Program-made: the position numbers and the translations under genes
Notes under the pieces: generated by a model
The model's input: the letters and a program-made list of their open reading frames with translations, nothing else
Told to the model about the DNA's origin: nothing
Database searches by the model: none
From: an uncultured bacterium
Lineage (GTDB): Bacteria; Patescibacteriota; Microgenomatia; Levybacterales; UBA12049
Direction of reading: 5' to 3'
DNA length: 64,000 nucleotides
Assembly: GCA_963826535.1 (NCBI GenBank)
Contig: CAWGXL010000010.1
Location: 234,814 to 298,813, forward strand
Part shown: positions 8,311 through 46,457 of the stretch, piece after piece
Layout: every line of letters begins with the position of its first letter
Numbering within the stretch: position 1 is the first letter of the stretch

Positions 8311-8381
8311 GTCATTCCTACTAAAGCAGGAATCTTATCATTTAATATTATTAGTTTCCCTTTTGCACTGGAATGACAAGG
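8311..8381. repeat. Family-1 MITE-like element, short copy (GTCATTCC...GGAATGACAAGG terminal inverted repeats)
   Basis: GTCATTCC at 8311-8318 and GGAATGAC at 8370-8377. The ends are shared with the copies at 15422, 38491 and 46355. Confidence 0.7.
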
Positions 8382-8407
8382 TGAAATTAAGATATAATTA
8401 GTCAGCA

Positions 8408-10195
8408 ATGAAATGGCGCTATCGATTTAGCTTATTATTTTTTATAATATTTTTTCTAATTATTGATAGCAGATTATATTATTGGCAGGTTGTCCGCGCA
8501 GATGAGTTGTCAGCTATGGGTCAGTCTCAATATGGAGCTGCAGTAAAATTAATTCCCCGCCGGGGTCCAATAAAAGTCTCGGACGGATTTGCAATTGCAA
8601 CAAATAAAATTACATATCTTGTTTTCGCAAATCCAAAGGTAGTAAAAGATAAAGAAAGCGTGGCAAATAAACTTTCTCCACTCTTGCAGATAAAAAGCAG
8701 TACTCTAAGTGCACGATTATCGTTAAATAGTTACTGGTCTCCTCTAAAACCTCAAATAGACGAGAATCTAAAAAACAAAATAGAAGCGCTTAAGCTCGAG
8801 GGAATAGACTTTGAAGAACAACCTAAACGTTTTTATCCCGAAGCGTCAATGGCTGCCAAAATACTAGGCTTTGTTGGAAAAGACAAAAATGGAGATCCTC
8901 AAGGTTACTTCGGTTTGGAAGGCTATTACGATAGACAATTACGCGGCAAAGCCGGCATGGGTATGCGCTTACATGATGCATGGGGCAATCCTATTGTTTC
9001 GAATATGAATAGCATTGCCGACAGGATCGACGGCCGTACGCTCATATTACACACAGACCGTGTTATTCAATATATTTTGGAGCAGGAACTAAAAAACGGA
9101 ATAGCAAAATATGGCGCTGAAAGCGGTATGGCAGGTATTATAGATCCTAAAACCGGTGGGATATTGGCGATGAGCGCATTTCCCGATTATGATCTCAGAA
9201 ATTATCAGGACTTTTCAGACAATCTTTATAAAAATCCGTTTATTTCCGATACTTACGAACCCGGCTCGACTTTCAAGCCATTTATTATGTCCGCAGCGAT
9301 TGACGCCGGAGTTATTAACTCCGATACCATCTGCACGATATGTAGCGGTCCCGTAGAAATTGGCGGCTATACCATCAAGACCTGGAATGACAAATACCAC
9401 GCGAACTCAACCATGACCGATGTTATTCAACACTCTGACAATACCGGAATGGTTTTTGTTGGCAAAAAGCTAGGTTTGGATCGTATGCTGAGTTATATAA
9501 AAAAGTTCGGATTCGACGATTACACAGGAATTGACCTACAGGGAGAGGCATCTCCGGACCTTAGGCCAAGGGACAATTGGTATCCAATTGACCTGGCAAC
9601 AGCTACCTTCGGACAGGGTATTACGGTAACCCCAATTGAATTACTTTCTGCATTTGCTGCGATAGCCAACGAGGGGAAAAGAATGGAGCCCCACATGGTC
9701 GATGCAATAGAAACACCTACAGGTGAAACGATCAAAATTCAACCCAAAGAATTAAGCCGGCCAATTTCTTCAAAAACGGCCAAAATTATGACTGAAATGA
9801 TGGTAAATGCTGTTGAGAACGGTGAAGCACAATGGGTGAGACTCAAAGGTTATAGAATTGCAGGTAAGACCGGTACAGCTCAAATCGCGCTAGCCGGTAA
9901 TTATGACCCAAGTAAAACAATCACTTCTTTTATCGGTTTTGCCCCTGCAGACGAACCAAAATTTGTCATTCTTGTAGTTTTAAATAAACCGTCCACATCT
10001 ATTTATGGATCTGAAACAGCAGCTCCGATATTTTTCAACGTTGCCAAAAAACTACTGACTTATTACAATATACCTCCAACCGGATCAGTAATCTCTACCC
10101 CTGAGCTATTAAAAGTTGTAGCAGACCCCCCACAAGACACACCTACACTTGATCTATCAATTTCACCTGAAGCTACGGAATCAGCCTCCCCTTAG
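8408..10195 (+). CDS. ftsI: Peptidoglycan D,D-transpeptidase FtsI (class B penicillin-binding protein)
   Basis: N-terminal TM helix, STFKP (SxxK), SDN (SxN) and KTGT motifs. 595 aa. Confidence 0.85.
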   Translation: MKWRYRFSLLFFIIFFLIIDSRLYYWQVVRADELSAMGQSQYGAAVKLIPRRGPIKVSDGFAIATNKITYLVFANPKVVKDKESVANKLSPLLQIKSSTLSARLSLNSYWSPLKPQIDENLKNKIEALKLEGIDFEEQPKRFYPEASMAAKILGFVGKDKNGDPQGYFGLEGYYDRQLRGKAGMGMRLHDAWGNPIVSNMNSIADRIDGRTLILHTDRVIQYILEQELKNGIAKYGAESGMAGIIDPKTGGILAMSAFPDYDLRNYQDFSDNLYKNPFISDTYEPGSTFKPFIMSAAIDAGVINSDTICTICSGPVEIGGYTIKTWNDKYHANSTMTDVIQHSDNTGMVFVGKKLGLDRMLSYIKKFGFDDYTGIDLQGEASPDLRPRDNWYPIDLATATFGQGITVTPIELLSAFAAIANEGKRMEPHMVDAIETPTGETIKIQPKELSRPISSKTAKIMTEMMVNAVENGEAQWVRLKGYRIAGKTGTAQIALAGNYDPSKTITSFIGFAPADEPKFVILVVLNKPSTSIYGSETAAPIFFNVAKKLLTYYNIPPTGSVISTPELLKVVADPPQDTPTLDLSISPEATESASP

Positions 10196-10218
10196 ATCCA
10201 TTTAAAAACTAATTACAA

Positions 10219-10734
10219 TCAATTACCTGTTTTCGTTAAAAAATCCTCTAACCCCTTTATAACCATATGAAAACCTATCGGCTGTTTCAATACTTGATTC
10301 CTCGGAAAAAATCGAAAATCCGCAACATCATCATCAGCTTTCAAAATTCCGCTAACAATTTTTGCCGTTACTATAATACCCAGCGTTGGATTAACAATCT
10401 CCTGAAATAAATAGGTGTCTTCATAAACTCCGATAATATTTATCATTTTTACCTCAACGCTTAGCTCCTCCATAATTTCCCTCTTAACTGAATGTTCCAG
10501 GCTTTCCCCTGCTTGTATAAATCCACCAGGAACATCCCAATAACCTTTTTTCGGCTCAATCTTTCGTCTTACCAGCAAAATTTCCTTTTTTTTATTTTCA
10601 ATAATAACACCATTACATGGTATTGGATTTAAATATAATTTAAATCCGCAATGAACACATTGCAACAATTCCTCTTTTATCTCAAGCTTATTTCCACACC
10701 TGTGACAAAATTTATTAGCTTCTCTAGGATCCAT
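10219..10734 (-). CDS. NUDIX hydrolase with N-terminal zinc-ribbon
   Basis: CxxC...CxxC at the N-terminus. NUDIX box GGFIQAGESLEHSVKREIMEELSV. Confidence 0.75.
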   Translation of the reverse strand: MDPREANKFCHRCGNKLEIKEELLQCVHCGFKLYLNPIPCNGVIIENKKKEILLVRRKIEPKKGYWDVPGGFIQAGESLEHSVKREIMEELSVEVKMINIIGVYEDTYLFQEIVNPTLGIIVTAKIVSGILKADDDVADFRFFPRNQVLKQPIGFHMVIKGLEDFLTKTGN

Positions 10735-10735
10735 A

Positions 10736-11065
10736 CTATTTTATTTTTGCGCCGGCTTTAGATTTTGATTTCGCTTTGATAGGTATAGGCTTTACCCCAT
10801 CTGCACACAATAGCATACCCTGTGATTCTTCACCAATAAATTTTCTTGGCTCCAAATTAATAACAAATATAAATTGCTTTCCTTTAAAATCTTCAGGTTT
10901 ATAAATAGGGTACAGACCGGATAAAATATTCCGCTTACCTTCCTCCCCAAAATCCACAGTAAGCCTTAAAAGTTTATCTGCTCCCTCTTTCCGAACGCAA
11001 TCCACTACATCACCTACCCGCAAATCCAATTTAGAAAATTCCTCATAAGTAATAAATGGCTTCAT
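10736..11065 (-). CDS. tRNA-binding domain protein (CsaA/Trbp111/MetG C-terminal-like)
   Basis: MKPFITYEEFSKLDLRVGDVV...DKLLRLTVDFGEEG.RNILSGL matches the OB-fold tRNA-binding domain. Confidence 0.7.
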   Translation of the reverse strand: MKPFITYEEFSKLDLRVGDVVDCVRKEGADKLLRLTVDFGEEGKRNILSGLYPIYKPEDFKGKQFIFVINLEPRKFIGEESQGMLLCADGVKPIPIKAKSKSKAGAKIK

Positions 11066-11079
11066 AAATTAAGATTGTA

Positions 11080-11412
11080 TCAAATAAGCTCCCAAAAATC
11101 ACCAATTTGAATTTTACTTTTCTCTACACTACCAACTGGCAATTCCACAATAAGTGAATAAATTGGATTCCAAACGAAAATCCTGTTTGGTTTCAATTTT
11201 TTCCTTATTCTCACGACCTGTTTCTTCTTATCCAAAACAATTACATCAATAGGAAACTGCATAAAAAAAGTGTGTACCCCAAATCGTGTTTTAAAAATCA
11301 TAACCACAGGCGTTTTAATAAAAATCATTCCAAATATTTTCTGACCTAACGTTGATGCATAAATGGCATTTTTAGAAATAATTGTATGATTGGCATTATT
11401 CGAGATCTTCAT
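11080..11412 (-). CDS. DUF192 domain protein
   Basis: ...GMIF...FWM..IDVIVLDKKKQVVRI...IYSLIVELPVGS...IGD matches the DUF192 (COG1430) pattern. The start is uncertain: ORF track 11487, internal Met 11412. Confidence 0.5.
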   Translation of the reverse strand: MKISNNANHTIISKNAIYASTLGQKIFGMIFIKTPVVMIFKTRFGVHTFFMQFPIDVIVLDKKKQVVRIRKKLKPNRIFVWNPIYSLIVELPVGSVEKSKIQIGDFWELI

Positions 11413-11456
11413 ATAATATTTATTATAGTAAAAATTTGCTATACTATGGTTATCCA

Positions 11457-12035
11457 ATGACTGGAAGAACACACGACCTTGCAGCATTTACTGCCTTAAG
11501 TATAACTGTTATTTTATTACCAATCGATAAAATTACACTTTCGACAGCTATTGTTGCAGTTGTAGCCAATATGATTGGTGGTATTGCCCCTGATATAGAT
11601 CAGCCAACCGCTCCCTTCTGGCGCAATCTACCAATTACCGGATATTTAGGAAGAACATTGACCAGACTTCTTGGTGGACATAGATTTCTCTCCCACTCTG
11701 TAATAGGCATCTTTATTTTCGGGTTTGGATTCCGCTATCTATTGAATATACTGCATCCAAGTTTCCCTCAGCTAAACATGGAAATTATCTGGTGGGCATT
11801 CATGATCGGTTTTGTATCTCATCTCGTTATGGACACATTCACCCGCGAAGGAGTACCATGGCTGCTTCCTGTCCCAATAAAATTTGGCATACCACCTCAT
11901 AAATTTTTCCGCATCACTACCGGCGGATTCATGGAAAGATTTATCCTTTTCCCGGCACTTATTATTTTTAATGGATATTTCTATTTTTCGAATTACTCCA
12001 AAATCCTAGACATATTAAAACACCATTTGAAGTGA
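11457..12035 (+). CDS. Membrane-bound metal-dependent hydrolase, YdjM/DUF457 family
   Basis: MTGRTHDLAAFTALS... and multi-TM with conserved His/Asp (HLVMD). The ORF track starts at TTG 11382; ATG 11457 is preferred. Confidence 0.6.
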   Translation: MTGRTHDLAAFTALSITVILLPIDKITLSTAIVAVVANMIGGIAPDIDQPTAPFWRNLPITGYLGRTLTRLLGGHRFLSHSVIGIFIFGFGFRYLLNILHPSFPQLNMEIIWWAFMIGFVSHLVMDTFTREGVPWLLPVPIKFGIPPHKFFRITTGGFMERFILFPALIIFNGYFYFSNYSKILDILKHHLK

Positions 12036-12052
12036 GCATTTTATAAAATCCT

Positions 12053-13246
12053 ATGTGGCAGGACATAAAAAATATTTACCATCTACTCCAAGCTATATAT
12101 GCCAACATAATAAATGGTTACCCTTCAAGAGGATTAACTATAATTGGCGTTACAGGAACAGATGGAAAAACTACAACCTCATTTATGATTTATCATATCC
12201 TAAGAGCTGCAGGCTTTAAAACCGCCCTCATCTCATCAGTCGCGGCTATCATTGACGGGAAAGAATATGATACCGGTTTTCATGTCACTAACCCAGATTC
12301 GTTACATTTACAACCATACATTAAAATGGCCCGAAATAAAGGTATTAAATATTTAATTATCGAAACAACCTCAATGGGCTTGCATCAGAACCGTGTTTTT
12401 GGTATACCTTTTAGTATCGCCGTTCTCACCAACATAACAAACGAACATCTCGACTACCATAAAACCTATCAGAATTATGTGAAAGCCAAAGCGCGCCTTT
12501 TCCAAGTCGCGAAAACTTCGATCATTAATGCCGATGATAAATCTTATTCTTATATAGTTCCATACATCCGGAATAAAAAAGTTATTACGTATGGAATGAA
12601 TAAAAACGCCGAAATAAATCCGATCGTCTTCCCATTTAAAACCAAACTACTTGGTAGTTTCAATACATACAATGCGCTTGCGGCTATTGCAGTCGCAAAG
12701 GATTTGAATATAAACGATGCGACTATAACCAAAGCTTTACTTTCATTTACAGCTCCAACTGGCCGCGTAGAAATTGTCTACAATAAGGACTTTAAGGTAA
12801 TTATTGATTTCGCCCACACCCCCGGATCTTTTAAAGCAGTACTTCCTGATATAAGCAAAATGAAAACAGGCCGTCTTATCCATGTTTTTGGCTCAGCCGG
12901 CCAGCGTGATAAATATAAACGGCCCGAAATGGGCAATATCTCATCAATTTACGCTGAGATCATTATCCTTACAGCCGAAGATCCTAGATCTGAATCTGTT
13001 GAAGAAATTATTTCTGAAATAGAGAAGGGTATAAATTCCAAATTCGACAAAAAAAACTTATTTATAATCCCCGATAGAAAAGAAGCTATTAAAAAAGCCG
13101 TTGATTTAGCTAAATACGGAGATATTATATTAACTACAGGTAAAGCACATGAAAGCTCCATGAATTATGGCAAAGGAGAAGAACCATGGAGTGAACATGA
13201 AGCTGTAAATGAAGCAATTAAAAAAAGAATGGTAAAAATTAAATAG
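12053..13246 (+). CDS. murE: Mur ligase family protein, MurE-like, lacking the usual N-terminal domain
   Basis: P-loop GVTGTDGKTTT, middle-domain NITNEHLDYH and C-terminal DFAHTPGSF (cf. MurE DYAHTPDAL). 397 aa, against about 490 for typical MurE. Confidence 0.6.
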   Translation: MWQDIKNIYHLLQAIYANIINGYPSRGLTIIGVTGTDGKTTTSFMIYHILRAAGFKTALISSVAAIIDGKEYDTGFHVTNPDSLHLQPYIKMARNKGIKYLIIETTSMGLHQNRVFGIPFSIAVLTNITNEHLDYHKTYQNYVKAKARLFQVAKTSIINADDKSYSYIVPYIRNKKVITYGMNKNAEINPIVFPFKTKLLGSFNTYNALAAIAVAKDLNINDATITKALLSFTAPTGRVEIVYNKDFKVIIDFAHTPGSFKAVLPDISKMKTGRLIHVFGSAGQRDKYKRPEMGNISSIYAEIIILTAEDPRSESVEEIISEIEKGINSKFDKKNLFIIPDRKEAIKKAVDLAKYGDIILTTGKAHESSMNYGKGEEPWSEHEAVNEAIKKRMVKIK

Positions 13247-13247
13247 T

Positions 13248-13976
13248 ATGATACATTTTGACACCTCTAATTTTAAAACGTTTTCACAATATCCAAATTT
13301 AGTTAGCGCTTATTCGACCCGGTCTTCAGGATCTATGAAAGATCATGGCATAATCAATTTTCAAGTTATTAATTCTTTTCTTACGAAATTTAAAATCTCA
13401 TCAGACAGACTTGTTTTATCAGAACAAGTACATGGTGGTGATATTGAAATCTTAGATAATGTTCCAACAGAAAAAATCATCCAAAAAGTTGATGGTTTGA
13501 TTACTTCAAAAAGAAATATTTTTCTGGGAATAATAACAGCCGACTGTTTTCCAATACTATTTTATGATAGAAATAAAAAGATAATTGGCGCAGCTCATGC
13601 CGGCTATAAAGGCTTAAGCAAACTGATAATTAAACATATGATAGATGAATTAAAAAATTTAGGAAGTAATCTCAAAGATTTAATTGTCTATATTGGTCCA
13701 GGAATCGGGCTTTGTTGCTATTTAGTATCACAAAAGAGAATTGAGATGTTTAATAAAGTATTTCCGTCATATCAAAATTGGTATCAAAAGAAAAAGGATT
13801 TATTTTTTTTAGATTTGAAAAAAATTGCGTATCTAAATCTTAAAGAACAAGGGATACTTATTAAGAACATCAATATCTCAGAAATTTGTACAAGCGATCA
13901 TATTGACACTTTTTTTTCTTACCGCAAAGAAGGAGAATCTGCCGGAAGATTTATCAGTATTATTGGAATGACATGA
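13248..13976 (+). CDS. pgeF: Peptidoglycan editing factor PgeF (YfiH/DUF152, purine nucleoside phosphorylase/laccase-like)
   Basis: TADCFPILFYD...GAAHAGYKGL...C motifs of the YfiH family. Located between Mur ligases. Confidence 0.7.
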   Translation: MIHFDTSNFKTFSQYPNLVSAYSTRSSGSMKDHGIINFQVINSFLTKFKISSDRLVLSEQVHGGDIEILDNVPTEKIIQKVDGLITSKRNIFLGIITADCFPILFYDRNKKIIGAAHAGYKGLSKLIIKHMIDELKNLGSNLKDLIVYIGPGIGLCCYLVSQKRIEMFNKVFPSYQNWYQKKKDLFFLDLKKIAYLNLKEQGILIKNINISEICTSDHIDTFFSYRKEGESAGRFISIIGMT

Positions 13977-15394
13977 AAAAGAAAAAGAAATACATTCACT
14001 TTACAGGTATCAAAGGTGTCGGCATGACCCCACTTGCCATTATAGCCAAAGAAGCCGGATTTACTGTTACCGGATCAGATATAGATGAAGAATTCATCAC
14101 AGATGTTGCCTTAAAAAATGCAGGAATTAGTCCGTTAATTGGATTTTCAAAAGATCATATCAATAAACAAGATTTAGTCATAACCACAGGTGCGCACAAT
14201 GGATTTGATAATATCGAAGTTAAGAGAGCCAAAGAATTAGGTATAGAAGTCCTTACTGCCGGGGAAGCTGTAGGGATTTTTATGGACGGCAAAATTTTCA
14301 ACAAAAAATACCGTGGTATCTCTATTGCAGGAACTCACGGGAAGACAACCACAACAGGCATGTTAGCAACAATTCTTAAAGAAAACCGTTTTGACCCATC
14401 ATATGTTATAGGAACCGGGAACGTTGTCTCCCTAGGCGCACCCGGACGATTCGGTCGCGGCAAATACTTCGTCGCCGAAGCCGACGAATATGCCACAGAA
14501 CCCAATTATGATAAAACACCCAGATTTCTCTGGCAGCACCCGCAAATTGCCATTTTCACCAACATCGAATTTGACCACCCGGATGTATACGCCACTCTTG
14601 AAGCTATCCGCTTTGCATTTTTAAAATTTGCCAACCAACTTCCAACGAACGGAGTTTTAATTGCCTGTGGTGATGATCGCCAAATTCAAAAATTAATTAA
14701 AGAATACAACAAGCCAAATATAACCTACGGATTTTCACCTGACAATAATTATGTCATAACCAAAGTTAGCATTTCAGGCGATCATATGTTTTTTTGGGTA
14801 AGCGCGTACGGTAAAAATATAGGTGAATTTATGCTAAAAGTTATAGGCGAGCATAATGCGCTAAATGCGCTTGCTGCCTTTATAGCTGCAACTGAAGCAG
14901 GCGTGTCTCTGGAGAAAGCCAGATCGGCGCTTCAGGCGTTTACAGGATCAAAAAGAAGATTAGAATATGTTGGCGAGCTCTTATCTGGAGCAAAAATCTA
15001 TGATGATTACGCCCATCACCCCACTGAAATTGAGAAAACTCTCCTCGCGCTGCGAAAGCAATATCCGAAGAAAAAAATAACCTGTTTTTTTCAACCACAT
15101 ACGTTTTTAAGAACAAAAAAACTATTCGATGACTTTTTAAGAGCATTTGAATTCGTTGATACTGTAGTAGTAACCAATATCTATCCATCTCTTCGTGAAC
15201 AATTTGACCCGACAGTTTCTTCAAAAATCCTAGCTGTGTCAATGGAAAAATTCCATAAAGAAGTTATTTACCTCCCTAAATTAACCGATATAACAGATTT
15301 TATCAATCAAAAAAAATTCCGCTCCGATACTATAATAGTTACTATGGGCGCCGGCGACATTTATAAAATAAATAATAATCTCAAGTTTAAATAA
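13973..15394 (+). CDS. murC: UDP-N-acetylmuramate--L-alanine ligase MurC
   Basis: N-terminus IHFTGIKGVGMTPLAIIAKEAGFTVTGSD, P-loop GTHGKTTTT, Mur ligase domains. 4-bp overlap with pgeF. Confidence 0.85.
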   Translation: MKKKKKYIHFTGIKGVGMTPLAIIAKEAGFTVTGSDIDEEFITDVALKNAGISPLIGFSKDHINKQDLVITTGAHNGFDNIEVKRAKELGIEVLTAGEAVGIFMDGKIFNKKYRGISIAGTHGKTTTTGMLATILKENRFDPSYVIGTGNVVSLGAPGRFGRGKYFVAEADEYATEPNYDKTPRFLWQHPQIAIFTNIEFDHPDVYATLEAIRFAFLKFANQLPTNGVLIACGDDRQIQKLIKEYNKPNITYGFSPDNNYVITKVSISGDHMFFWVSAYGKNIGEFMLKVIGEHNALNALAAFIAATEAGVSLEKARSALQAFTGSKRRLEYVGELLSGAKIYDDYAHHPTEIEKTLLALRKQYPKKKITCFFQPHTFLRTKKLFDDFLRAFEFVDTVVVTNIYPSLREQFDPTVSSKILAVSMEKFHKEVIYLPKLTDITDFINQKKFRSDTIIVTMGAGDIYKINNNLKFK

Positions 15395-15421
15395 GTAAAC
15401 TGACACCTAACTGACGGAGAA

Positions 15422-15562
15422 TTGTCATTCCGAGCGACCAAAGGGAGTCGAGGCGACACCAAGAAGTGGATAGTACCCTTGTGGTGAATCTCATACCACA
15501 TATCTACTTGGTGGCTTGAGATCCCTCCACTACGCTATCGCTTCGGTCGGGATGACAGGGTG
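15422..15562. repeat. Family-1 MITE-like element, long copy (TTGTCATTCCGAGCGA...GAGATCCCTCCACTACGCTATCGCTTCGGTCGGGATGACAGGG)
   Basis: About 140 bp. The 3' 40 nt are nearly identical to the copy at 46417-46457. A TATAAT box follows directly at 15563-15568, upstream of the murB-like gene. Confidence 0.8.
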
Positions 15563-15583
15563 TATAATATGAATCATTAATCT

Positions 15584-16237
15584 ATGAACAACTGGCAGGA
15601 GTTCGCCGATTTAATCGGAAATAATAGAATAAAAGAAAACGAACACGCAAAATTAAATGTAGACGTTGAAAGGATTGAGGATCTAATATTTATATCCAAA
15701 CAAGCTGCAATCCACAAAATACCTCTTTTCATAATAGGAACGGGTTCTTTGACCAATTTACCAACAGGTCAACTAAACGGACTACTCATAAAAAACAATT
15801 GCCGCAAATTTGAAATATTTGTGATGTCAGGAAAGAAGCGCGAAGGACAGATGGGAACAATCAACACTTTAGTATATGCTGAATCCGGAACAATTATGAA
15901 TCAGCTTGTACGGTTTACTATAGAAGAGGGTTACAGCGGACTGGAATATCACTTAGGACTACCAGGCACAGTTGGCGGTGCCATTTACACCAACGCCAGA
16001 TACACTCCCAAAAATATTTATCTCAATGACAATGTCGGGAAAATTAGAATACTAAATAAAGATGGCCACATCCAAGAAGTCCACAGAGACTATTTTATCT
16101 CCCGCGCGAAAAGTAATTTCTCTGAACTCGAAAATATTATTCTTTCAGCAGTTTTCCACTTAGTTCCTGAAGATAAAAAACTACTCTGGCAAAGAGCCAA
16201 CGAAGCAGCAGAGTATAGAAGTAGACTAATTTCGTAG
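15584..16237 (+). CDS. murB: UDP-N-acetylenolpyruvoylglucosamine reductase MurB-like, shortened (217 aa)
   Basis: FIIGTGSL(T)NL (cf. GGGSNLL) and GLPGTVGGAIYTNARY (cf. GIPGSVGGAVxMNAGAYG). The C-terminal substrate domain is truncated relative to a 300-aa MurB. Confidence 0.55.
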   Translation: MNNWQEFADLIGNNRIKENEHAKLNVDVERIEDLIFISKQAAIHKIPLFIIGTGSLTNLPTGQLNGLLIKNNCRKFEIFVMSGKKREGQMGTINTLVYAESGTIMNQLVRFTIEEGYSGLEYHLGLPGTVGGAIYTNARYTPKNIYLNDNVGKIRILNKDGHIQEVHRDYFISRAKSNFSELENIILSAVFHLVPEDKKLLWQRANEAAEYRSRLIS

Positions 16238-16249
16238 TATAATATCTTT

Positions 16250-22320: not shown

Positions 22321-23123
22321 AGTTGCGCTTTTATAATAATATTATTTGGTTCCCATCTATTTTTAAATATTTTAGATAAAAATTTTTTAATAAAGTAAAA
22401 ATTTTTAAAAGCATAAAGTGTGTTTGAGTTTAATATTTTAAATCCTACTAACTCTAATTCAGCTTTGATTAATTTGTCAGTGTAATCCCTCACGTGTGCG
22501 TTTGGATTAGTTGTCATTTTTTCCAATTCTTCGTTCATGGGAACAGAAACTATTAAAAAGCCCTTTTTTTTTAACATTTTTTTAACATTACCAAGCAACT
22601 TAAATAGTTTACTGGGCGGTACATGCTCTAAAACTTCGAGCAAAAAAATGCAATCGAAAAAATTATAATGATAATTCAAACTATAAATTGATTGTTTTTC
22701 AAAATTACCTTTAAATTTACTTCTTAATCTATTAATTGAGATATCCGAGAAATCATTGGCATATATAGCAATATCTCGCCTTTTAATTAAATATTCCTCA
22801 AGAAATCCAGCTCCGGCTCCGATATCTAATACTTTTTTACAAGAACTAGTTAAAAATTTAAAGGCAATCTTTATTCTTTCTTTTGTCATTCCATCCTGAT
22901 CTTTAATATTGCCGATATCTTCAAAATTTTCATCCCACATATCAGATGTATTATTATCCTTTATCTCGGTAAATGACCTTTCGTATAATCGTCGCAACGT
23001 ATTAATCTCTTTACTTTCTGCAAGCATTTGTCTGCACCTCTCAATATTAAACGGATTCACGCAGCACTTTTTACAAATAGGATAATTCTTATCTATTTTA
23101 CAAATCAGACAATTACTCCTCAT
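22317..23123 (-). CDS. Class I SAM-dependent methyltransferase with N-terminal Cys-rich zinc-ribbon
   Basis: VLDIGAGAGFLEEYL (motif I) and an N-terminal CxxC...CxxCC. Confidence 0.65.
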   Translation of the reverse strand: MRSNCLICKIDKNYPICKKCCVNPFNIERCRQMLAESKEINTLRRLYERSFTEIKDNNTSDMWDENFEDIGNIKDQDGMTKERIKIAFKFLTSSCKKVLDIGAGAGFLEEYLIKRRDIAIYANDFSDISINRLRSKFKGNFEKQSIYSLNYHYNFFDCIFLLEVLEHVPPSKLFKLLGNVKKMLKKKGFLIVSVPMNEELEKMTTNPNAHVRDYTDKLIKAELELVGFKILNSNTLYAFKNFYFIKKFLSKIFKNRWEPNNIIIKAQL

Positions 23124-35125: not shown

Positions 35126-35196
35126 TTATTATTGCGAGTGACAGCAATGTAACGCAGTTCCGCTTAGCCGGGCTTCATCAATCTCCCTCTCAATTT

Positions 35197-36060: not shown

Positions 36061-36063
36061 AAT

Positions 36064-37605: not shown

Positions 37606-37955
37606 AAAGATCTGTCTAAATAAACTCTCAACTGTTCCAAAACCCCATTCATATTAAAATTATATACCATATCATTCTCAATTATCCGTATTCCTAGAAG
37701 TAGCTCATAATCTTTCCGGAAATTAACTTGTTTATTTGGGAACAAATCCTCCAACAACTTTTTATTTTGTGCGCTTAAATCAAATGAATGATCAATATAA
37801 ACATTCATTTTACTCTCTTTACTCTTCAAGGCCTTAAAATATACCCGCAACTCAGCCCTGGTTAAATGGTTTATTATATTATTAACAATCTTATTATCCA
37901 GCCTATTATCCACATAACTTGCTTCGGCTAATTTTGAAATCTGTTTTTTGTCCAT
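37602..37955 (-). CDS. atpH: ATP synthase delta (OSCP) subunit, short form
   Basis: Position between atpF and atpA. 117 aa, shorter than a typical delta of about 180 aa. Confidence 0.6.
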
Positions 37956-38461
37956 TAATCTACCTTCTTTCTTATCTTTTGAATTGCATTCTTAATTATA
38001 TCCTCTTGATCCTCTTTACTGAATATCTGAACTGTTGATTTCTGTAGAAGTTCTATTGCCAGTCCGCTTATTTGCATGGAGAGTACTCTCTGCGCTTCTT
38101 TTGTCTCTAAGACGATTTGCTTTTTAGCGTCCTCCAAAACTTTTTGAGCCTGTATCTTAGCTTTTGCTTCAGTAGCAGTCAGGATCTGTTCACTTTGTTT
38201 TCTTGTTTCCTCAAGCAACTTTTTAGCTTCTAATTGTGCCCGTTTCAATACATCTTTTTCCTTCACCACAGTTTTCTCCAGAAGCAACCGTGACTCTTCA
38301 GCCTGCTTCAACCCTTCTTTAATTGTTTCCTGACGCTTTTTTAATACATCCAGGATCTTTTTATAAAAAAACCTTTTTAAAATATATAAAACAATTAAAA
38401 AGTTTACTATCTGAGCACTAAGAAGTACCAGATCTACCCCAAAATTTTTAAAAATTTCCAT
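37955..38461 (-). CDS. atpF: ATP synthase Fo subunit b
   Basis: N-terminal TM helix plus a long charged helix. Position in the operon. Confidence 0.8.
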   Translation of the reverse strand: MEIFKNFGVDLVLLSAQIVNFLIVLYILKRFFYKKILDVLKKRQETIKEGLKQAEESRLLLEKTVVKEKDVLKRAQLEAKKLLEETRKQSEQILTATEAKAKIQAQKVLEDAKKQIVLETKEAQRVLSMQISGLAIELLQKSTVQIFSKEDQEDIIKNAIQKIRKKVD

Positions 38462-38490
38462 AATAAATTAATTTTTCCTTTTACCTTATC

Positions 38491-38591
38491 TTGTCATCCC
38501 TTCCGCCAGCTGGCGGATCATAATCTCAAGCGTTTGGGATCTTGAATTAAATTCAGAGCCTGTCCTGAAGTTCTTTCAGGGATGACAGTAC
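38491..38591. repeat. Family-1 MITE-like element (TTGTCATCCC...CAGGGATGACAGTA) containing the perfect palindrome CCGCCAGCTGGCGG
   Basis: Terminal inverted repeats match the other family-1 copies. Sits between atpF and atpE. Confidence 0.7.
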
Positions 38592-38601
38592 TTAAAACAC
38601 T

Positions 38602-38811
38602 TTATATCTTAATAAACGCAAAGATAAGTGAATAAATAGCTATTGCCTCTGCGAATGCCATGCCCAATAACATGATTGGGATAATTTTTCCAGATGCATC
38701 CGGATTGCGTCCAATTGCTTCCACAGCCTTAGCTCCAATAAATCCTACCCCAATCGCCGGGCCTAAACCTCCAACTGCAACAATAATACCTCCTGTAACA
38801 CTAATTTCCAT
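38602..38811 (-). CDS. atpE: ATP synthase Fo subunit c
   Basis: 69-aa hairpin proteolipid with a conserved carboxylate (AEAIAIY). Confidence 0.9.
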   Translation of the reverse strand: MEISVTGGIIVAVGGLGPAIGVGFIGAKAVEAIGRNPDASGKIIPIMLLGMAFAEAIAIYSLIFAFIKI

Positions 38812-38882
38812 AAATAACTCACCTCCTTTTAGAAGCTCTTAACGATCCCGATTCAATCGGGAGAGTTCTAGTGCTTCTTAAA

Positions 38883-38952
38883 CCCGCCGCTAAAGCGCTC
38901 TTCAAGCCGTGTACAAATAGTACTGAAAAGGTTTGAAGTAAGCTTAGGCGGG
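38883..38952. repeat. Family-2 palindromic repeat, copy B
   Basis: CCCGCCGCTAAAGCGCTCTTCAAGCCGTGTACAAATAGTACTGAAAAGGTTTGAAGTAAGCTTAGGCGGG. Sits between atpB and atpE. Confidence 0.8.
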
Positions 38953-38955
38953 TTA

Positions 38956-39744: not shown

Positions 39745-39754
39745 TGCATATTAG

Positions 39755-40324: not shown

Positions 40325-40367
40325 AATTTTTACCTGCTCTTCTTAAATATAAAAAAACATTATACCA

Positions 40368-40742
40368 TTATTTCTTTTTTATTTCCTCCCCTTCATTTGT
40401 TATTGAAATGAGATGTCCTTTTTCCTCACTTGGTTTAAGCTTTTTTAAAACTTTGCAGATTTTTTTATCAATCTGGGCATTCGTCAATGTTGTCGAAAGA
40501 GCAATCACACTCGGCTTATTATCTTCAATTAATGGTTTAAAATCTTTTGTATTAAAAACTACAACTATATACTCGTTTTTCCCCGCAAGATGGTAAATAG
40601 CCTTGTCGTTCAATCCGCCCTTTTTCAAATCGTGATTAATGTGTCTTACAGTATGAAGATTATTTAGTTTTGCAAAACTTTCTCTTCGCGGTAAACCTTC
40701 ATCAAGCAGCAGCTTGCGTCTTATATGTCTTTTTGAAATCAT
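40368..40742 (-). CDS. DUF5615 family protein (PIN-like, toxin-like partner of DUF433)
   Basis: ...KLLLDEGLP... matches the DUF5615 N-terminal signature (LLDENLP). Downstream of and overlapping the DUF433 gene. Confidence 0.55.
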   Translation of the reverse strand: MISKRHIRRKLLLDEGLPRRESFAKLNNLHTVRHINHDLKKGGLNDKAIYHLAGKNEYIVVVFNTKDFKPLIEDNKPSVIALSTTLTNAQIDKKICKVLKKLKPSEEKGHLISITNEGEEIKKK

Positions 40743-40950
40743 CAAGTCCGATTTCCATTAATAATGAAATTACCGACTGGATTTTTTTAATGCTAACTTG
40801 TGGATACTCCTCTTTCAAAGACTCAGTTGTATATCCTTGTTTTACAAGTTCCTTTATTCGTTCTATCGGAATTCTTGTCCCCGCAATTACAGGCGTCCCA
40901 CCAAGGATCTCAGGGTCAATAATGATGGTTTTTGATAATTTTGTAATCAT
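40702..40950 (-). CDS. DUF433 family protein (antitoxin-like)
   Basis: IIIDPEILGGTPVIAGTRIPIERIKELVKQGYTTESLKEEYPQVSIKKIQSVISL matches the DUF433 pattern. Confidence 0.65.
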   Translation of the reverse strand: MITKLSKTIIIDPEILGGTPVIAGTRIPIERIKELVKQGYTTESLKEEYPQVSIKKIQSVISLLMEIGLDDFKKTYKTQAAA

Positions 40951-40996
40951 GGCCTGTTAAGTATATAAAATATAATTCCTTTTGACAAGGATCTTA

Positions 40997-43900
40997 TCAG
41001 CCGACAGCATTCTTCGGAGAACTAATTGTATCAACAATTATAATCATTTTATCATTTTTATTATCCAGTTTTCCTTCCAGCACAATCACAGTATCATTCA
41101 ACAGAAGCGTTTTATACCTCTCAAAAGTTTTTGGAAATATAATACACTCAATTTGAAAGCCATTCTCATTGCTTATAGTCAAAAAAGCCATTTCACTGTT
41201 TGTCTTTTTGGTAAATATTCGTTTTGCATTTTCAATAATACCTCCGACCTTAACTCGCGCTCCTTCGCGCTCGTCTTGCAAAAATTCAAGCTCATGGCTT
41301 AGGACAGATTTAATTTTACTCAGTGCATCTCGATGCGGATGTGAAGTTAGATAAAATCCCAAAAATTCTTTTTCAAACACAAGCTTTTCTTCACCGGTAA
41401 AATCATCTACATCAACAGCGGAAAAATCTATAGCTTTCGAGTCTTCTGATTCACCAAATAATGACCCTTGCCCGTCGGACGCCTGTTTTTTCAACTGATT
41501 TGCTTTATTTACAATCTCAGGATAAACTATCAAAAGTGAAGCCCTCTTACCAAAAGAGTCCATTGCACCGGCTTTAATAAGGCTCTCCATTGTTTTCTTA
41601 TTAACTGTAGACAAATTTACTCTTGCGCAAAAATCTGCAAAGTTTATAAAATTCTTAACATTGCGGACCTTTAGTATAGCATCAATCGCTGCGCTCCCAA
41701 CATTTTTAATCGCTGATAACCCGAAACGAATTTTGGTGTTTTCCTCAATTGTAAAATCACTTTCAGATTTATTAATATCAGGAGAAAGAACAGGCACATT
41801 CAGTCTTTTACATTCCCCAATAGCCAACGCAATTTTCTCGTTTTTTACGGGACCCGTAGAACCCCTTGATTCAGCAGTTAATAGTGCAGTCATAAATTCT
41901 ACGGGGAAATTTGCTTTCAAATAAGCTGTTCGGAAAGAAATAGTCGCGTAACATGCAGCATGCGCTTTATTAAATCCATAGCCTGCAAAAGGAGCAATCA
42001 AATCAAAAAATTCCTCCGCTCTTTTTGCACTTAATCCATTTGCAACACAACCCTTAATAAATAATTCCCTTTGCTTTTTCATTTCAGATGGAATTTTCTT
42101 ACCCATAGCTTTACGGAATTTGTCCGCTTCCAACCAACTATATCCCGCAAGGGCGATAGCAGTTAATAAAACATCATCCTGATAAGTAAGCACACCATAA
42201 GAATGCTTCAAAATATCTTTTAATCTTGGATCAGGATAAGTAATAAGTTTTGGATTGTGCTTCCTTCTAACGAACTCAGGAATATTTGCCATAGGACCGG
42301 GCCTGTACAATGCAACCATTGCTTGAAGATCAAAAATCGAGGTCGGTTTAAGTTCCTTAATATTTCTGCGCATTCCTGGGGATTCTAATTGAAAAATTCC
42401 TGTTGTTTCCCCGCTCGATAAAAGATCATAAGTTTTTTTATCATTTAATGGTGCTTTTGTTAAATCAACCACTTTATCTTGATTTTGTTTTATAAATTTC
42501 AGAGTCTCTTCAATTATTGTTAAATTGCGAAGTCCAAGAAAATCCATTTTGAGTAAACCTACCCCATCTTCCCCCACTGTATACATATCGTATTGAGTAA
42601 CTATTTTATCCCCATTCGTTTCTCTCTGAAGCGGTGTGTATTCAGTTAGTGGTTTATCGGCTATGACGACACCGGCTGCATGTACAGATGCATGACGCGC
42701 TACGCCTTCAAGTTTTTTGGCTAAATCCAAAAGTCTTTTTGTTTCAGGTTCGGTGTCATAAGCCCTCTTAAGATCAGGGCTTTGTCCTAGTGCAGTATCA
42801 ATTGTCATTGCATGTCCCTGCCATCCGGGTGGGATCATTTTGGAGATCCTATCCGGTCCTGCATATGGCATCCCAAGAGCTCTTCCTACATCACGCACAG
42901 ACCCCCTCGCTTCCATCGTGCCAAAAGTAATAATTTGCGCTACCTTATCCTCGCCATATTTTTTTATGACGTATGCGATTACTTCATCGCGCCGTGTATC
43001 TGCAAAATCCAAATCAAAATCAGGAGCAGATGGACGCATTGGATTAAGAAAGCGTTCGAATGGAAGTTCAAAATAAAATGGGTCAACATCTGTTATTCCC
43101 AAAGCATATGAAGCAACTGAGCCTGCTGCAGAGCCTCGTCCGGGGCCTACCAAAATATTATGATCTTTCGCCCAATTTACAAAATCTGATACAACCAGAA
43201 AATACATATCATAATTTCTTTTTGAAATAACCGATAGTTCATAGTCAACTCTCTGTTGAATTTCAGGTGTAATTTTGTTGTATCGCTTATTTAAGCCTGC
43301 ATAAACTTCCTGTTTTAAATATTCATCCGCATTTAGATTGTCAGGAACTTCAAAAATCGGCATATGCCATTTACCAAGTATGATTTCTACGTTGCATCGC
43401 TCTGCGATTTTCGTTGTATTCTCAATCGCCTCAGGAATATCTAAAAATGAGCCGTTCATCTCTTCGCCACTTTTAATATAAAAATCAGGTGAGCTTATCA
43501 TGGAGAGCTTTCTTTTCTTTTCTAAAATATTTGTTTGTGTTTGCACGCACAGCAATATTTCCTGCGCCTCAGCATCTTGTTTATTTATATAATGGTTATC
43601 GTTTGTCGCGACAACAGGTATGCCTAGTTTAGATGATAACTTCAAAAGTTTTTGATTAACATTTTCCTGCGGAGGAACATTTATATGTCTCTGCAATTCG
43701 AAATAAAAATGATCCGGCCCAAAAATATCAGCCAATTTAACCGCCCTTTTCTCAGCGGTAGCTTCTTCATTTCGCATAATCGGTTCGCTAACATATCCGT
43801 TCACACACGCGCTAAGGCAAATGAGTCCCTCATGGTACTTAGCCAGCAAGTCAAGGTCTGATCTAGGTTTATAATAATATCCATCCAAATTTGATATGCT

Positions 43901-44218
43901 CACGATCTTCATCAAATTCTTATACCCAATATTATTTTCAGCAAGCAGCACCAAATGATTATAGTCTTTATCAACCCCTGCCTGCTTTTCATACAGCGAC
44001 CTCTTTGCTACATAAATCTCGCATCCGATAATAGGCTTGATACCCATTTCACGGCAGTTTTGAAAGAATTTAATTGCCCCATACATATTCCCATGATCCG
44101 TAATTGCCAAAGCCGTCATTCCCAAATCCTTTACCCGCTGAATCATATTTTTCACTTTAGAGAGCCCGTCAAGAAGAGAATATTCCGAATGATTATGTAG
44201 ATGCACAAAATCCGCCAT
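40997..44218 (-). CDS. dnaE: DNA polymerase III alpha subunit
   Basis: N-terminal PHP domain (MADFVHLHNHSEYSLLDG). 1073 aa. Confidence 0.95.
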   Translation of the reverse strand: MADFVHLHNHSEYSLLDGLSKVKNMIQRVKDLGMTALAITDHGNMYGAIKFFQNCREMGIKPIIGCEIYVAKRSLYEKQAGVDKDYNHLVLLAENNIGYKNLMKIVSISNLDGYYYKPRSDLDLLAKYHEGLICLSACVNGYVSEPIMRNEEATAEKRAVKLADIFGPDHFYFELQRHINVPPQENVNQKLLKLSSKLGIPVVATNDNHYINKQDAEAQEILLCVQTQTNILEKKRKLSMISSPDFYIKSGEEMNGSFLDIPEAIENTTKIAERCNVEIILGKWHMPIFEVPDNLNADEYLKQEVYAGLNKRYNKITPEIQQRVDYELSVISKRNYDMYFLVVSDFVNWAKDHNILVGPGRGSAAGSVASYALGITDVDPFYFELPFERFLNPMRPSAPDFDLDFADTRRDEVIAYVIKKYGEDKVAQIITFGTMEARGSVRDVGRALGMPYAGPDRISKMIPPGWQGHAMTIDTALGQSPDLKRAYDTEPETKRLLDLAKKLEGVARHASVHAAGVVIADKPLTEYTPLQRETNGDKIVTQYDMYTVGEDGVGLLKMDFLGLRNLTIIEETLKFIKQNQDKVVDLTKAPLNDKKTYDLLSSGETTGIFQLESPGMRRNIKELKPTSIFDLQAMVALYRPGPMANIPEFVRRKHNPKLITYPDPRLKDILKHSYGVLTYQDDVLLTAIALAGYSWLEADKFRKAMGKKIPSEMKKQRELFIKGCVANGLSAKRAEEFFDLIAPFAGYGFNKAHAACYATISFRTAYLKANFPVEFMTALLTAESRGSTGPVKNEKIALAIGECKRLNVPVLSPDINKSESDFTIEENTKIRFGLSAIKNVGSAAIDAILKVRNVKNFINFADFCARVNLSTVNKKTMESLIKAGAMDSFGKRASLLIVYPEIVNKANQLKKQASDGQGSLFGESEDSKAIDFSAVDVDDFTGEEKLVFEKEFLGFYLTSHPHRDALSKIKSVLSHELEFLQDEREGARVKVGGIIENAKRIFTKKTNSEMAFLTISNENGFQIECIIFPKTFERYKTLLLNDTVIVLEGKLDNKNDKMIIIVDTISSPKNAVG

Positions 44219-44229
44219 AATTAAGTAAC

Positions 44230-44826
44230 ACTATTATAGTTTCTCAAACCAAACTTGTCGAGGCTTTATTCCAGGGGAGTTCAAACATACTTTTTCACTT
44301 AGCGACCCCGATGTTACATCGGGGGAGTCGAAGTGCATCTATAACGAAGCCTTCGACAGACTCAGGCAAAATTATTTGTTTCAGAAGCGTGAACTGTTAC
44401 TTCAAATGTGTTAAGGGAGGCGTAACCACATCCTCACTCCATTCAAATCTAGTCTGAAGCTTGCTCTTCTGAGCCCTTTCGCAATTCTCCTCGATCGTTT
44501 TGCTTCTTTTTGATATATTGTTTGAAGATTTGGTGAAGAATAAAAATTTTCGGCAAGCCTGTCATAGCTTTCTGCGGATCTTGTATATGCGTGCGACAAT
44601 ATGTGTCCTTTTTGGCTAAGATATAAATCAGCACCACGAAGGTGGCTGGCTGTTACCTTCCGAGACCCCCCATGCGCCTCCTCCCACGCAAGCTTTGCTT
44701 TTGTCTTGCTAGAACTCCTGAAAACTGCTTTAGCAATATTATCGCTAGGCCCGGTTCTGGTTTGTTCTATCCTCTTTTCAATATATCTTATTGCTAATTC
44801 CACCATAAATGAAATATATGTCTAGA
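44230..44826 (-). ncRNA. Candidate structured ncRNA, identity unresolved (RNase P RNA or tmRNA not confirmed); the embedded 131-aa ORF (44411..44806) is probably spurious
   Basis: A 690-bp intergenic gap, extraordinarily long for this genome, with local GC of 50-63% against roughly 35% in flanking DNA. Strong hairpin CGACUCCCCGAUG-UAA-CAUCGGGGUCG. Consensus sigma70 promoter immediately upstream on the minus strand, and no RBS. Confidence 0.4.
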
Positions 44827-44854
44827 ATTATAGCACAGCTTGTTTGCGTGTCAA
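44827..44854 (-). promoter_or_regulatory. Consensus sigma70 promoter (TTGACA, 16-nt spacer, TATAAT) firing leftwards into the GC-rich locus
   Basis: Minus strand reads TTGACACGCAAACAAGCTGTGCTATAAT, with -35 at 44849-44854 and -10 at 44827-44832. Confidence 0.6.
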
Positions 44855-44913
44855 TTTTTTAACTTTTCCGGCTTTAAGAATTGTTACACTTTGTTTACGA
44901 ATTAATCTATTAA

Positions 44914-46341
44914 CTATTTCAAACTACTTTCAATGGTTTTTCGAACAATCGTCGCGTCGACTTTTTTCCCGATCTTTCTCATTGTCTGTCCCACCAAAAA
45001 CATAATAGAAGCTTCTTTTCCTTTCTTATAATCTTCAACAGCCTTTCCGTGCTCCTTTATCACTTGACCTATTATTTTTTGCAACTCATCCTCATCAATC
45101 ACTACTCTAGTTTTAGCTCCGGCTATCTGTTTTACCAAATCACCAGGCTTTACCTTATTGATATTAACCTTTTTATTAATAATCCAATTAGCAATAGCCT
45201 TTGGCTCAACTCTTTCTTTATTATTTCTTACCGCATTTTCAAAATAGTCAGCCATGTTTTTTTCTCTGCACAAAATTTCGGCATCATAAAACGTGAGTCC
45301 ATATTCTGTCTCAAATCTTGCCACTTTTTTATCCGGCAATTCTGGCACCAAAGCAATCAGACTGCTAAGTTGCTCTCCCGTCCATCTAATTGGAGGAATA
45401 TCGGGGTCTGGAAAATATCTGTAATCCTGCGCTTCCTCTTTCAATCGCTGAGAGAAAGTTTTTTGCCTATCCTCATCCCAACCTCGGGTTTCCTGAACCG
45501 GAATTTTTCCTTCCACTAGTATTTTCTCCTGCCTTTTCAATTCATAAGCAATCGCTTTCTCAACAAATTTAAAAGAGTTGATATTTTTAACTTCCACCTT
45601 ATATTTTGGCAATTCGTCATTCTGGAGCGAAGCGATAGAATCTACTGCAGGGGATCCTATCGTGGTCGTTGCCACTCCAGGATGACTGCGAAGCGAAATA
45701 TTCGGTTCAAGACGCATCTCACCTTTTTCCATGTCAGCATTCGACACATCTAAATAGCGTACAATCTGTTGAAGTTTTTGCAAATATTCTTTTACCTCGA
45801 TTGCGCTTTGAAAATCAGGCTCAGTTACGATCTCGACCAATGGCACACCACTCCTATTGAAATCAATAAATGATACCTTGGGAGGAGGATTACTTTCGAG
45901 TATACCAGTGAGTTCTTCGTCTTTAGTATACCAAGCAGAACCTCCATGGTGAGTTAGCTTAGCAGTGTCTTCCTCCATATGAACCCTGCGGATACGTATC
46001 AATTTTTTATCGGACAAAACAATATGTCCTTTCTCAGCGAACGGCTGATCGTACTGACTTATCTGATATCCTTTTGCCAGATCCGGATAAAAATAATTTT
46101 TGCGATCAAACTTTGAAATCAAAGGAATCTTACAATTTAAAGCCATCCCGATCATTACGCACCACTCAATTGCTTTTTTATTAGGCACCGGCAATGCGCC
46201 AGGTAGTCCAAGGCAAACAGGGCACGTGTGTGTGTTAGGTTCTTTTCCAAAATATTCCGTACTGCACCCGCAGAACATCTTTGACTTAGTCTTGAGTTCC
46301 ACATGTACTTCTAGTCCGATTACAGGTGTGTATTTATTCAT
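44914..46341 (-). CDS. gatB: Asp/Glu-tRNA amidotransferase subunit B
   Basis: ...GLEVHVELKTKSKMFCGC... is the GatB N-terminus, with a YqeY-like C-terminal domain. Confidence 0.9.
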   Translation of the reverse strand: MNKYTPVIGLEVHVELKTKSKMFCGCSTEYFGKEPNTHTCPVCLGLPGALPVPNKKAIEWCVMIGMALNCKIPLISKFDRKNYFYPDLAKGYQISQYDQPFAEKGHIVLSDKKLIRIRRVHMEEDTAKLTHHGGSAWYTKDEELTGILESNPPPKVSFIDFNRSGVPLVEIVTEPDFQSAIEVKEYLQKLQQIVRYLDVSNADMEKGEMRLEPNISLRSHPGVATTTIGSPAVDSIASLQNDELPKYKVEVKNINSFKFVEKAIAYELKRQEKILVEGKIPVQETRGWDEDRQKTFSQRLKEEAQDYRYFPDPDIPPIRWTGEQLSSLIALVPELPDKKVARFETEYGLTFYDAEILCREKNMADYFENAVRNNKERVEPKAIANWIINKKVNINKVKPGDLVKQIAGAKTRVVIDEDELQKIIGQVIKEHGKAVEDYKKGKEASIMFLVGQTMRKIGKKVDATIVRKTIESSLK

Positions 46342-46354
46342 AGTTATTTTCTAT

Positions 46355-46457
46355 TTGTCATTCCGAGCGACTGGAAGTAGTCGAGGAATCTCCTACCAAT
46401 GAGCTAATAAGTGGTATGAGATCCCTCCACTTCGCTATCGCTTCGGTCGGGATGACA
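46355..46457. repeat. Family-1 MITE-like element (TTGTCATTCCGAGCGACTGG...GAGATCCCTCCACTTCGCTATCGCTTCGGTCGGGATGACA)
   Basis: Shares both termini and a 40-nt 3' block with the 15422-15562 copy. Sits between gatB and gatA. Confidence 0.8.

Follow-up and report, generated by a model that had tools for sequence, protein, structure and literature searches.

Paired TGTC/CGTC-tagged hairpins in the operon spacers of a Patescibacteria genome: probable gene-less counterparts of Ssn-type GIY-YIG repeat units

Several classes of tagged palindromic repeats have been described in bacteria. A class of repetitive extragenic palindromes (REPs) is recognized by the tag CGTC, often TGTC, which is followed by a stem opening with A and T; stems measure 8-9 bp, loops 4-5 nt, and a CCA tail closes the unit (Di Nocera et al., 2013; PMC3733652). 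These CGTC REPs are mostly dimers, some of them intragenic, and have been sorted into the families CGTC-1 to CGTC-4; the class takes in the dRS3 repeats of Neisseria and the RPE-4 and RPE-6 elements of Rickettsia, has "apparently no dedicated transposase", and was not found linked to a REP-associated tyrosine transposase (RAYT; PMC3733652). Another example is the NTS repeat of Neisseria (CGTCATTCCCGCGMAVGCGGGAATCYRG), which is bound by SsnA, a protein of 94 aa belonging to the GIY-YIG family cd10448 (Chenal et al., 2025; PMC11893778). Ssn acts on NTS as single-stranded DNA only and binds no RNA. It cuts in the variable flank, a few nucleotides upstream (5') of the tag. Critical positions are the three bases preceding the stem, which govern cleavage, and the C directly after the palindrome, which in Neisseria is the most important base for binding (PMC11893778). 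Ssn-related motifs (SRM) were found near 71 % of ssnA homologues and on both sides of 42 %, and the NTS-ssnA-NTS arrangement was likened by the authors to an insertion sequence and compared with REP/RAYT, mobility being put forward only as their hypothesis (PMC11893778). Finally, in the REPIN-RAYT system two inverted tagged hairpins with a short spacer constitute a non-autonomous unit (Bertels and Rainey, 2011; PMC3116915). Here, palindromic elements from a 64-kb stretch of the genome of an uncultured bacterium of the Levybacterales (Patescibacteriota; contig CAWGXL010000010.1), referred to as the window, are compared with these systems. The elements probably belong to the TGTC/CGTC-tagged REP class, the same as SRM/NTS, and are gene-less inverted pairs, a reading to which we give a probability of about 0.7. 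Such pairs would be the counterparts of units in which a ~95-aa GIY-YIG (Ssn-type) nuclease is encoded between the same modules.

The original prediction had listed four elements, and all of them are present at about the positions it gave: c1 (8310-8379), c2 (15423-15557), c3 (38492-38587) and c4 (46356-46457). The motif TGTCATYCC has 11 matches on both strands of the window versus 0.78 expected, a number that none of 100 shuffles reached, and eight of these strict sites are the eight ends of c1-c4; the relaxed form GTCATYCC has 15 matches versus 2.0 expected. In fact, the inverted-pair pattern GTCATYY..RRATGAC is found six times (0.57 expected) when a fifth copy, c5 (45615-45687), is counted in. 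It had been predicted that there were four copies, all in short operon spacers; this location holds for c1-c4, but the number does not, a fifth copy having been overlooked inside gatB. The sixth pair (22885-22977) is without hairpins and is probably due to chance. Lone TGTCATYCC sites inside open reading frames (ORFs), at 9384, 13965, 17778, 22885, 24219, 44115 and 48390, have neither partner nor hairpin and were likewise taken as chance, and no more diverged copies beyond c1-c5 were detected in the window by blastn-short with each element.

The ends of these elements were described at first as plain terminal repeats of 9-10 bp. When the two ends of c4, and those of c2, are compared, they prove instead to be imperfect inverted modules of ~40 nt, structured in the order (T/C)GTC-AT(Y)CC-GA-(G/C)-C-GA-[variable hairpin]-GA-G-T-(C/G)-GA-GG(R)AT-C, the commonest inner hairpin of the module being GCGNAGC. 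Modules of the window are 36-52 nt long, with stems interrupted by tandem G·A and a bulged T and with a variable inner hairpin. Across the ten modules of c1-c5, GTC precedes the stem in every case (TGTC in seven, CGTC in two, AGTC in one) and the stem always begins with AT; a C follows it (GGRAT-C or equivalent) in nine, the right module of c3 having A. The TGTC start given in the original prediction does not hold for c1, which begins with CGTC. The c4 element consists of two modules with tags outward, 26 nt apart, and c2 is a c4-type copy with ~32 extra nt within the left module. The 5' end TTGTCATTCCGAGCGAC is common to both, and so is a 3' block of 40 nt in which a single (W) position differs, as had been noticed in the original prediction. 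On the other hand, the likeness of c1 and c3 to c2 and c4 is limited to the tag, the closing stem and the overall architecture.

The hairpin is backed by compensatory changes. In an alignment of 47 modules (44 from other genomes and three from the window), three pairs switch between complementary combinations: pair 10-39 (24 CG, 22 UA), pair 15-34 (30 GC, 15 CG), whose column 34 was free of any constraint from the search pattern, and pair 20-28 (22 GC, 19 CG). Covariation scores 0.293, versus 0.102 after shuffling and at most 0.112 with slid partners. Two CGAG/CGAG blocks, the classic setting of sheared G·A pairs in tandem, lie between the Watson-Crick pairs of the module. The alignment was turned into a covariance model (R1), which in cmsearch gives high scores, 55.7-58.7 bits, to both c4 modules and to the right module of c2, and 8-17 bits to c1, c3 and c5. 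Folded as RNA, the whole elements reach -15.5 kcal/mol (c1; z = -2.8), -53.8 (c2; z = -3.5), -39.5 (c3; z = -4.8) and -45.6 (c4; z = -5.5); as DNA, c4 folds at -22.4 kcal/mol (z = -5.1), with z = -3.2 for c5 and z = -3.0 for the left module of c1. Strong folding of whole pairs is expected of any palindromic repeat.

The link with a nuclease comes from loci in other genomes. In four of at least 120 loci selected by the module (L004, L012, L110 and L114), an ORF of ~95 aa lies exactly between two inverted modules. The four ORFs carry the motif YYVYIL..LYIGVTNNL.RR..EH and are matched by the Pfam family GIY-YIG (PF01541) with E-values of 1e-14 to 1e-17, the family being assigned here by Pfam only. 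Among the matches listed, the lengths spanned by tags-outward pairs have a bimodal distribution, 39 of 52 measuring 50-150 nt and a second group of ~370-420 nt being the one that bears the GIY-YIG gene. The association was also approached in reverse, from 80 metagenome loci chosen by the protein alone, of which the 61 with at least 200 nt on each side were scored for a hairpin preceded by an HGTCAY tag and having 5 bp or more in its stem. Tagged hairpins were found on at least one side in 47 of the 61 (77 %) and on both sides, tags outward, in 27 (44 %; span 353-652 nt); these are raw counts, the wrong-orientation flank control being unclean as flanks often hold inverted pairs. Both proportions are close to the published 71 % and 42 % (PMC11893778). 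Stems vary from one GIY-YIG locus to another (ATTCC, ATCCT, ATTCT, ATTGC, ATTTC, ACCCT and others), and several of these loci have canonical short NTS-like hairpins, e.g., TGTCATTCCCGCGCAAGCGGGAATCC in L202.

The module is widely distributed. One genome per GTDB species (596 Gb) was scanned with the pattern TGTCATYCCGASCGAN{8,30}GGRATC, for which a rough estimate of the chance expectation is a few tens of matches, and at least 120 stretches proved to carry the module. The matches are mutually related, since they extend to ...GAGT(C/G)GAGG ahead of the required GGRATC. Among those listed, many metagenome-assembled genomes (MAGs) have several copies and about half of the matches are tags-outward inverted pairs like c4; the hosts include Acidobacteriota, Chloroflexota, Planctomycetota, Omnitrophota, Gemmatimonadota, Clostridia, Alpha- and Gammaproteobacteria and several Patescibacteria, with a host G+C of 37 to 72 %. 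The long module was also found in 21 stretches of IMG/VR viral contigs (L208-L228), several of them multi-copy (L213, L227 and L228); no GIY-YIG gene was found in the fetched IMG/VR stretches. Viral contigs are a possible vehicle for spread between phyla. As for the ends, none of 68 tags-outward dimers among the matches listed has a flanking direct repeat of 3 nt or more, their sole flank regularity being a T...A that is part of the repeat itself, and no target-site duplication is seen at c1-c5. A separate observation concerns L001, from a MAG labelled Gammaproteobacteria (G+C 0.41), where an element at 5259-5368 closely resembles c2 and c4: its right module is near-identical (GATCCCTCCACGCGCTATCGCTTGGTCGGGATGAC) and its inner hairpin, CCGCCAGCTGCCGG, is like that of c3, a likeness to the window copies that spans a nominal phylum boundary.

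The best named relatives of GatB and MurC belong to Levybacteria or the Patescibacteria group. Orthologous spacers were compared in relatives, that is, in syntenic loci whose GatB is 67-77 % and MurC 77-79 % identical to those of the window. The gatA|gatB junctions of L121, L122 and L123 have no module (in L121 and L123 the two genes have an ATGA overlap, and in L122 a 91-nt AT-rich spacer separates them), and c4 is therefore lineage-specific. The murC|murB spacer that accommodates c2 is empty in L126 and L127, and in L125 it has a different, single module (TGTCATTGCGAG...GCAATCTC). Conversely, L122 has a single c4-type module (3458-3497; 49 bits) in the spacer between the M48 peptidase gene and murT, the counterpart of which in the window (51163-51179) is 17 nt long. 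The atpE|atpF spacer is a hot spot or else under selection: in L121 and L122 it holds a single TGTC-tagged hairpin with an interior unlike that of c3. This apparent reciprocal gain and loss among relatives points to mobility. The original prediction had set a mobile repeat against a conserved operon-internal element with the same sequence in relatives, or one explained by an Rfam match; the spacers of the relatives are mostly without elements, and neither was found.

Insertion within genes has been detected as well. The c5 element is an inverted pair of ~73 nt lying in frame in the gatB ORF (CGTCATTCT-GGAGCGAAGCGAT-AGAATC ... GATCCT..AGGATGACT, with a minus-strand module AGTCATCCT..AGGATC); R1 gives it 15.8 bits and flags 45612-45646. 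Translated in frame it reads about SHPGVATTTIGSPAVDSIASLQND. At this site the close GatB homologues P0004, P0005 and P0007 have only a loop of 5-6 residues, and the crystal structure of Aquifex GatB (3h0l_B) is likewise without the insert; the c5 peptide probably falls in a surface loop of GatB. A separate in-frame dimer, with ATTGC stems, occurs at 4607-4686 in gatB of L123, a groundwater relative (protein P0010), where it is translated as VIASEAKQSQ...GIATSPLAPRNDK at a position of GatB different from that of c5. Tagged repeats can thus account for unusual peptide stretches (…SLRS…ASLQND…) inserted into conserved proteins, as well as for spurious small ORFs. Two further features of this protein were observed. 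The loop occupied by c5 has additional inserts in other GatB homologues (e.g., P0002, SLRAQRSN...), and residues ~133-156 of the window GatB (44914-46341) constitute a second, larger length difference (GGSAWYTKDEELTGILESNPPPKV) with respect to most homologues, in the DNA of which no tagged repeat was recognized.

The four intergenic copies differ in detail. The c1 element is a 70-nt inverted pair (CGTCATTCC...GGAATGACAA) in the spacer between the ftsL stop (8308) and the start (8408) of the ftsI gene for a penicillin-binding protein (PBP). Its left module, CGTC-ATTCCT-N8-AGGAAT-C, is NTS/dRS3-like (R1 13.6 bits, E 0.37), and its right module, on the minus strand (TTGTCATTCC...GGAAAC), is degenerate (8.3 bits). 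The 135-nt pair c2 lies between the murC end (15394) and the start of a murB-like ORF (15584); the left module, of type A, reads GAGCGA..GTCGAGG with the interruption of ~32 nt before the closing GAATC (30.1 bits, 15420-15458, plus strand), and the right one, of type B on the minus strand, reads GACCGA..GTGGAGGGATC (58.2 bits, 15516-15560). Between atpE (38602-38811, a 69-aa ORF) and atpF (37955-38461), both on the minus strand, c3 is a 96-nt pair with a left module TGTCATCCC-[35 nt]-GGGATCT (17.1 bits, E 0.05) and a right module TGTCATCCCTGAA..TTCAGG; the perfect palindrome noticed previously, CCGCCAGCTGGCGG, is located within those 35 nt. Finally, c4 is a 102-nt pair between gatA (stop 46462) and gatB (start 46341), both on the minus strand, with a left module of type A (46356-46392; 55.7 bits) and a right module of type B (46419-46457, minus strand; 58.7 bits) on either side of the spacer. 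The flanking genes were confirmed by NCBIfam, which yields FtsL, a class B PBP (FtsI-like), MurC, a short MurB-like protein, AtpF, AtpB, GatB and GatA. The MurB-like ORF (15584-16237) encodes only 217 aa, the FAD-binding part alone; the relatives are equally short (215-222 aa), and this looks like a lineage feature rather than a pseudogene.

Two other sets of repeats were observed in the window. An unrelated palindromic family of ~85-100 nt with ends ACCCGCC...GGCGGGT occurs at 7876-7957, 38869-38951 and 52681-52782, in the spacers rsmH|ftsL, atpB|atpE and lemA-like|polX, respectively; the copy at 52.7 kb folds with z = -6.5, and the family is absent from the atpB|atpE spacers of L121 and L122. 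A 32-nt sequence is found in three copies (88-97 % identical) among small tandem ORFs, the first (496-527) at the 3' end of ORF 138-527 and the others (1029-1060 and 1731-1762) just downstream of ORFs ending at 1013 and 1720. These copies may mark tandem duplicates.

Several results weigh against assigning the window elements to the SRM/NTS class. The published SRM pattern, HGTCWYN(0-2)YYVSBRHN(0-5)WNVSBRGN(0-2)RNCYNB, has no match in the window; it matches none of 129 long modules and three of the 61 GIY-YIG loci, although the canonical NTS does match. This pattern admits only short uninterrupted stems, and because the test with it fails, the class is assigned by architecture and gene association. 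No GIY-YIG/ssn gene was detected in the window by tblastn with the four locus-derived GIY-YIG proteins. The R1 model scores c1 and c3 poorly (13.6 and 17.1 bits). For most single modules, nearest-neighbour folding as DNA does not improve on shuffles, in a folding model that gives tandem G·A pairs little credit, and support for the hairpin therefore rests on covariation. The atpE|atpF site is filled in three lineages, which might reflect selection for the hairpin. In addition, Ssn cleaves the motif in one orientation only, from which no simple excision scheme follows, and Ssn-driven transposition is inferred.

The assignment to the Ssn-associated class nevertheless suggests a mechanism. Each module would be a single-strand DNA hairpin recognized by Ssn, and the gene-less pairs would spread, or would once have spread, in a REPIN/RAYT-like manner, as Ssn processes the single-stranded DNA that arises in replication, repair or DNA uptake. 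Copies would persist where they do little harm, as in spacers of co-directional genes or in the surface loop of GatB, and any effect on operon mRNAs, whose stability or processing the long hairpin might influence, would be a by-product. A broader proposal can be made only tentatively, the odds being somewhat against it: a GIY-YIG gene with two tagged hairpins may constitute a new mechanistic class of mobile element, based on single-strand DNA, driven by the GIY-YIG nuclease and without target duplication, whose non-autonomous, REPIN-like offspring, such as the window pairs, would actively invade operon spacers and protein loops in small Patescibacteria genomes and cross phyla, possibly on phages.

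Among the alternatives, the one that survives best is a cis-acting role at the RNA level, in which an intercistronic hairpin kept by selection would stabilize the upstream cistron, serve as an RNase III site or attenuate read-through. The four intergenic copies lie within strings of co-directional genes and would be transcribed, their RNA is predicted to form strong hairpins (-39 to -54 kcal/mol, z to -5.5), and a tagged hairpin is present at atpE|atpF in the window and in two relatives. Moreover, atpE needs higher expression than atpF, and the atp and mal operons are the classic setting of intercistronic hairpins. Against this, c2 and c4 are opposite relative to transcription, type A coming first in the murC-murB transcript and type B in gatA-gatB; both are missing from orthologous spacers, and one copy is translated within GatB. 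None of the copies has a T-tract on the transcribed strand, terminator-like sites are no more frequent than in shuffles, and a promoter scan also gave chance level. As the original prediction had already reported, no known RNA family explains the elements: an Rfam search of the window yielded only three tRNAs at gathering thresholds, and permissive scans of c4 and four other loci only chance-level matches to microRNA-like hairpins. The same module is found in many phyla in unrelated contexts, and Ssn binds no RNA (PMC11893778). The suggestion of a structured regulatory or terminator RNA is consequently weak, with copies in both orientations, without T-tract and, in one case, in frame in coding sequence, and as a general explanation we regard an RNA role as unlikely. 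A secondary RNA role for particular copies, especially c3, is the main rival and keeps some life.

Somewhat less probable is that the hairpin pairs serve the host as a repeat in another role and that the GIY-YIG gene is a selfish gene of homing type inserting in the middle of the pair, a parasite and not the propagator. GIY-YIG enzymes do include homing endonucleases, the gene is always in the spacer between two modules, and gene-less pairs are far commoner than gene-bearing ones. However, Ssn cuts outside the tag, in the variable flank and not at the centre of the pair, and only in single-stranded DNA, and the type of module co-varies with the adjacent gene across loci, as expected of a recognition pair. 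A REP/REPIN system served by a RAYT (an IS200/IS605-type Y1 HUH transposase) would follow the same logic of tagged hairpins in inverted doublets, mostly intergenic and without duplication (PMC3116915, PMC3733652), and is nonetheless very improbable because the tag is TGTC/CGTC rather than GTAG, no RAYT was found linked to CGTC REPs (PMC3733652) and the flanked gene is of GIY-YIG type. Least probable of all are classical miniature inverted-repeat transposable elements (MITEs), deletion derivatives of DDE insertion sequences moved by cut-and-paste through terminal inverted repeats: the TG...CA termini and the inverted repeats are real, and the copies are small (70-135 nt), intergenic and several in the window, but duplications are absent from all 68 dimers, the ends are covarying structured hairpins and not plain repeats, and the only gene found between such ends, also in the full-length relatives, encodes a GIY-YIG nuclease (no search aimed at transposase genes was made). 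Thus, the original prediction of non-autonomous mobile elements can be kept as regards dispersed, palindromic and apparently non-autonomous repeats, but not as regards their designation as MITEs.

The element class is already known, and its enzyme partner was described in 2025; a full-text literature search for the literal repeat sequences returned no relevant paper. The novelty is modest and consists of a variant module, long and rich in G·A, that occurs in Patescibacteria and in numerous other phyla, together with the in-frame GatB insertions and comparative evidence of mobility. Surveys with the published SRM pattern probably undercount the target repeats of Ssn in soil and groundwater lineages, including Patescibacteria, because that pattern misses the long G·A-rich modules entirely. 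Furthermore, the view of Ssn-hairpin units as mobile elements gains comparative support from four observations, namely the bimodal sizes, the lack of target duplications, the reciprocal presence and absence among relatives, and the two independent in-frame insertions in GatB.

Compared with the known systems, the window elements are closest to SRM/NTS-Ssn, with which they share a 5' HGTCAT tag that sets the orientation, a hairpin beginning with AT, a C right after the stem and a wide range of phyla. SRM/NTS copies number in the hundreds and are mostly intergenic, and ssn genes are placed between inverted copies, as in the GIY-YIG loci of other genomes but not in the window; the window elements also differ in having longer modules with interrupted stems, compact gene-less pairs and a host among the Patescibacteria. 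With CGTC REPs they have in common the unpaired CGTC/TGTC tag, a stem starting with A-T and then T-A, the formation of dimers and some intragenic copies, whereas a 5-bp closing stem, G·A blocks, a variable interior and a TCTC or TCTT tail set the window modules apart. REPIN-RAYT is similar in that its enzyme is single-strand-specific and encoded by a repeat-flanked gene and that no target is duplicated, but that enzyme is of Y1 HUH type and not GIY-YIG, and the tag (GTAG) and the sequence are different. Ogata and co-workers are said to have described, in 2000, Rickettsia palindromic elements inserted in frame within genes. These resemble c5 and the GatB dimer of L123 in lying in frame in essential genes and yielding a surface-loop peptide, although they belong to another host lineage and only RPE-4 and RPE-6 are tied to the CGTC class. 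Finally, MITEs of the Correia and ERIC type are also small, bounded by terminal inverted repeats, transcribed within operons and able to form strong RNA hairpins; unlike the elements described here, they have target-site duplications (TA for Correia), no tag-hairpin module and no association with a GIY-YIG gene.

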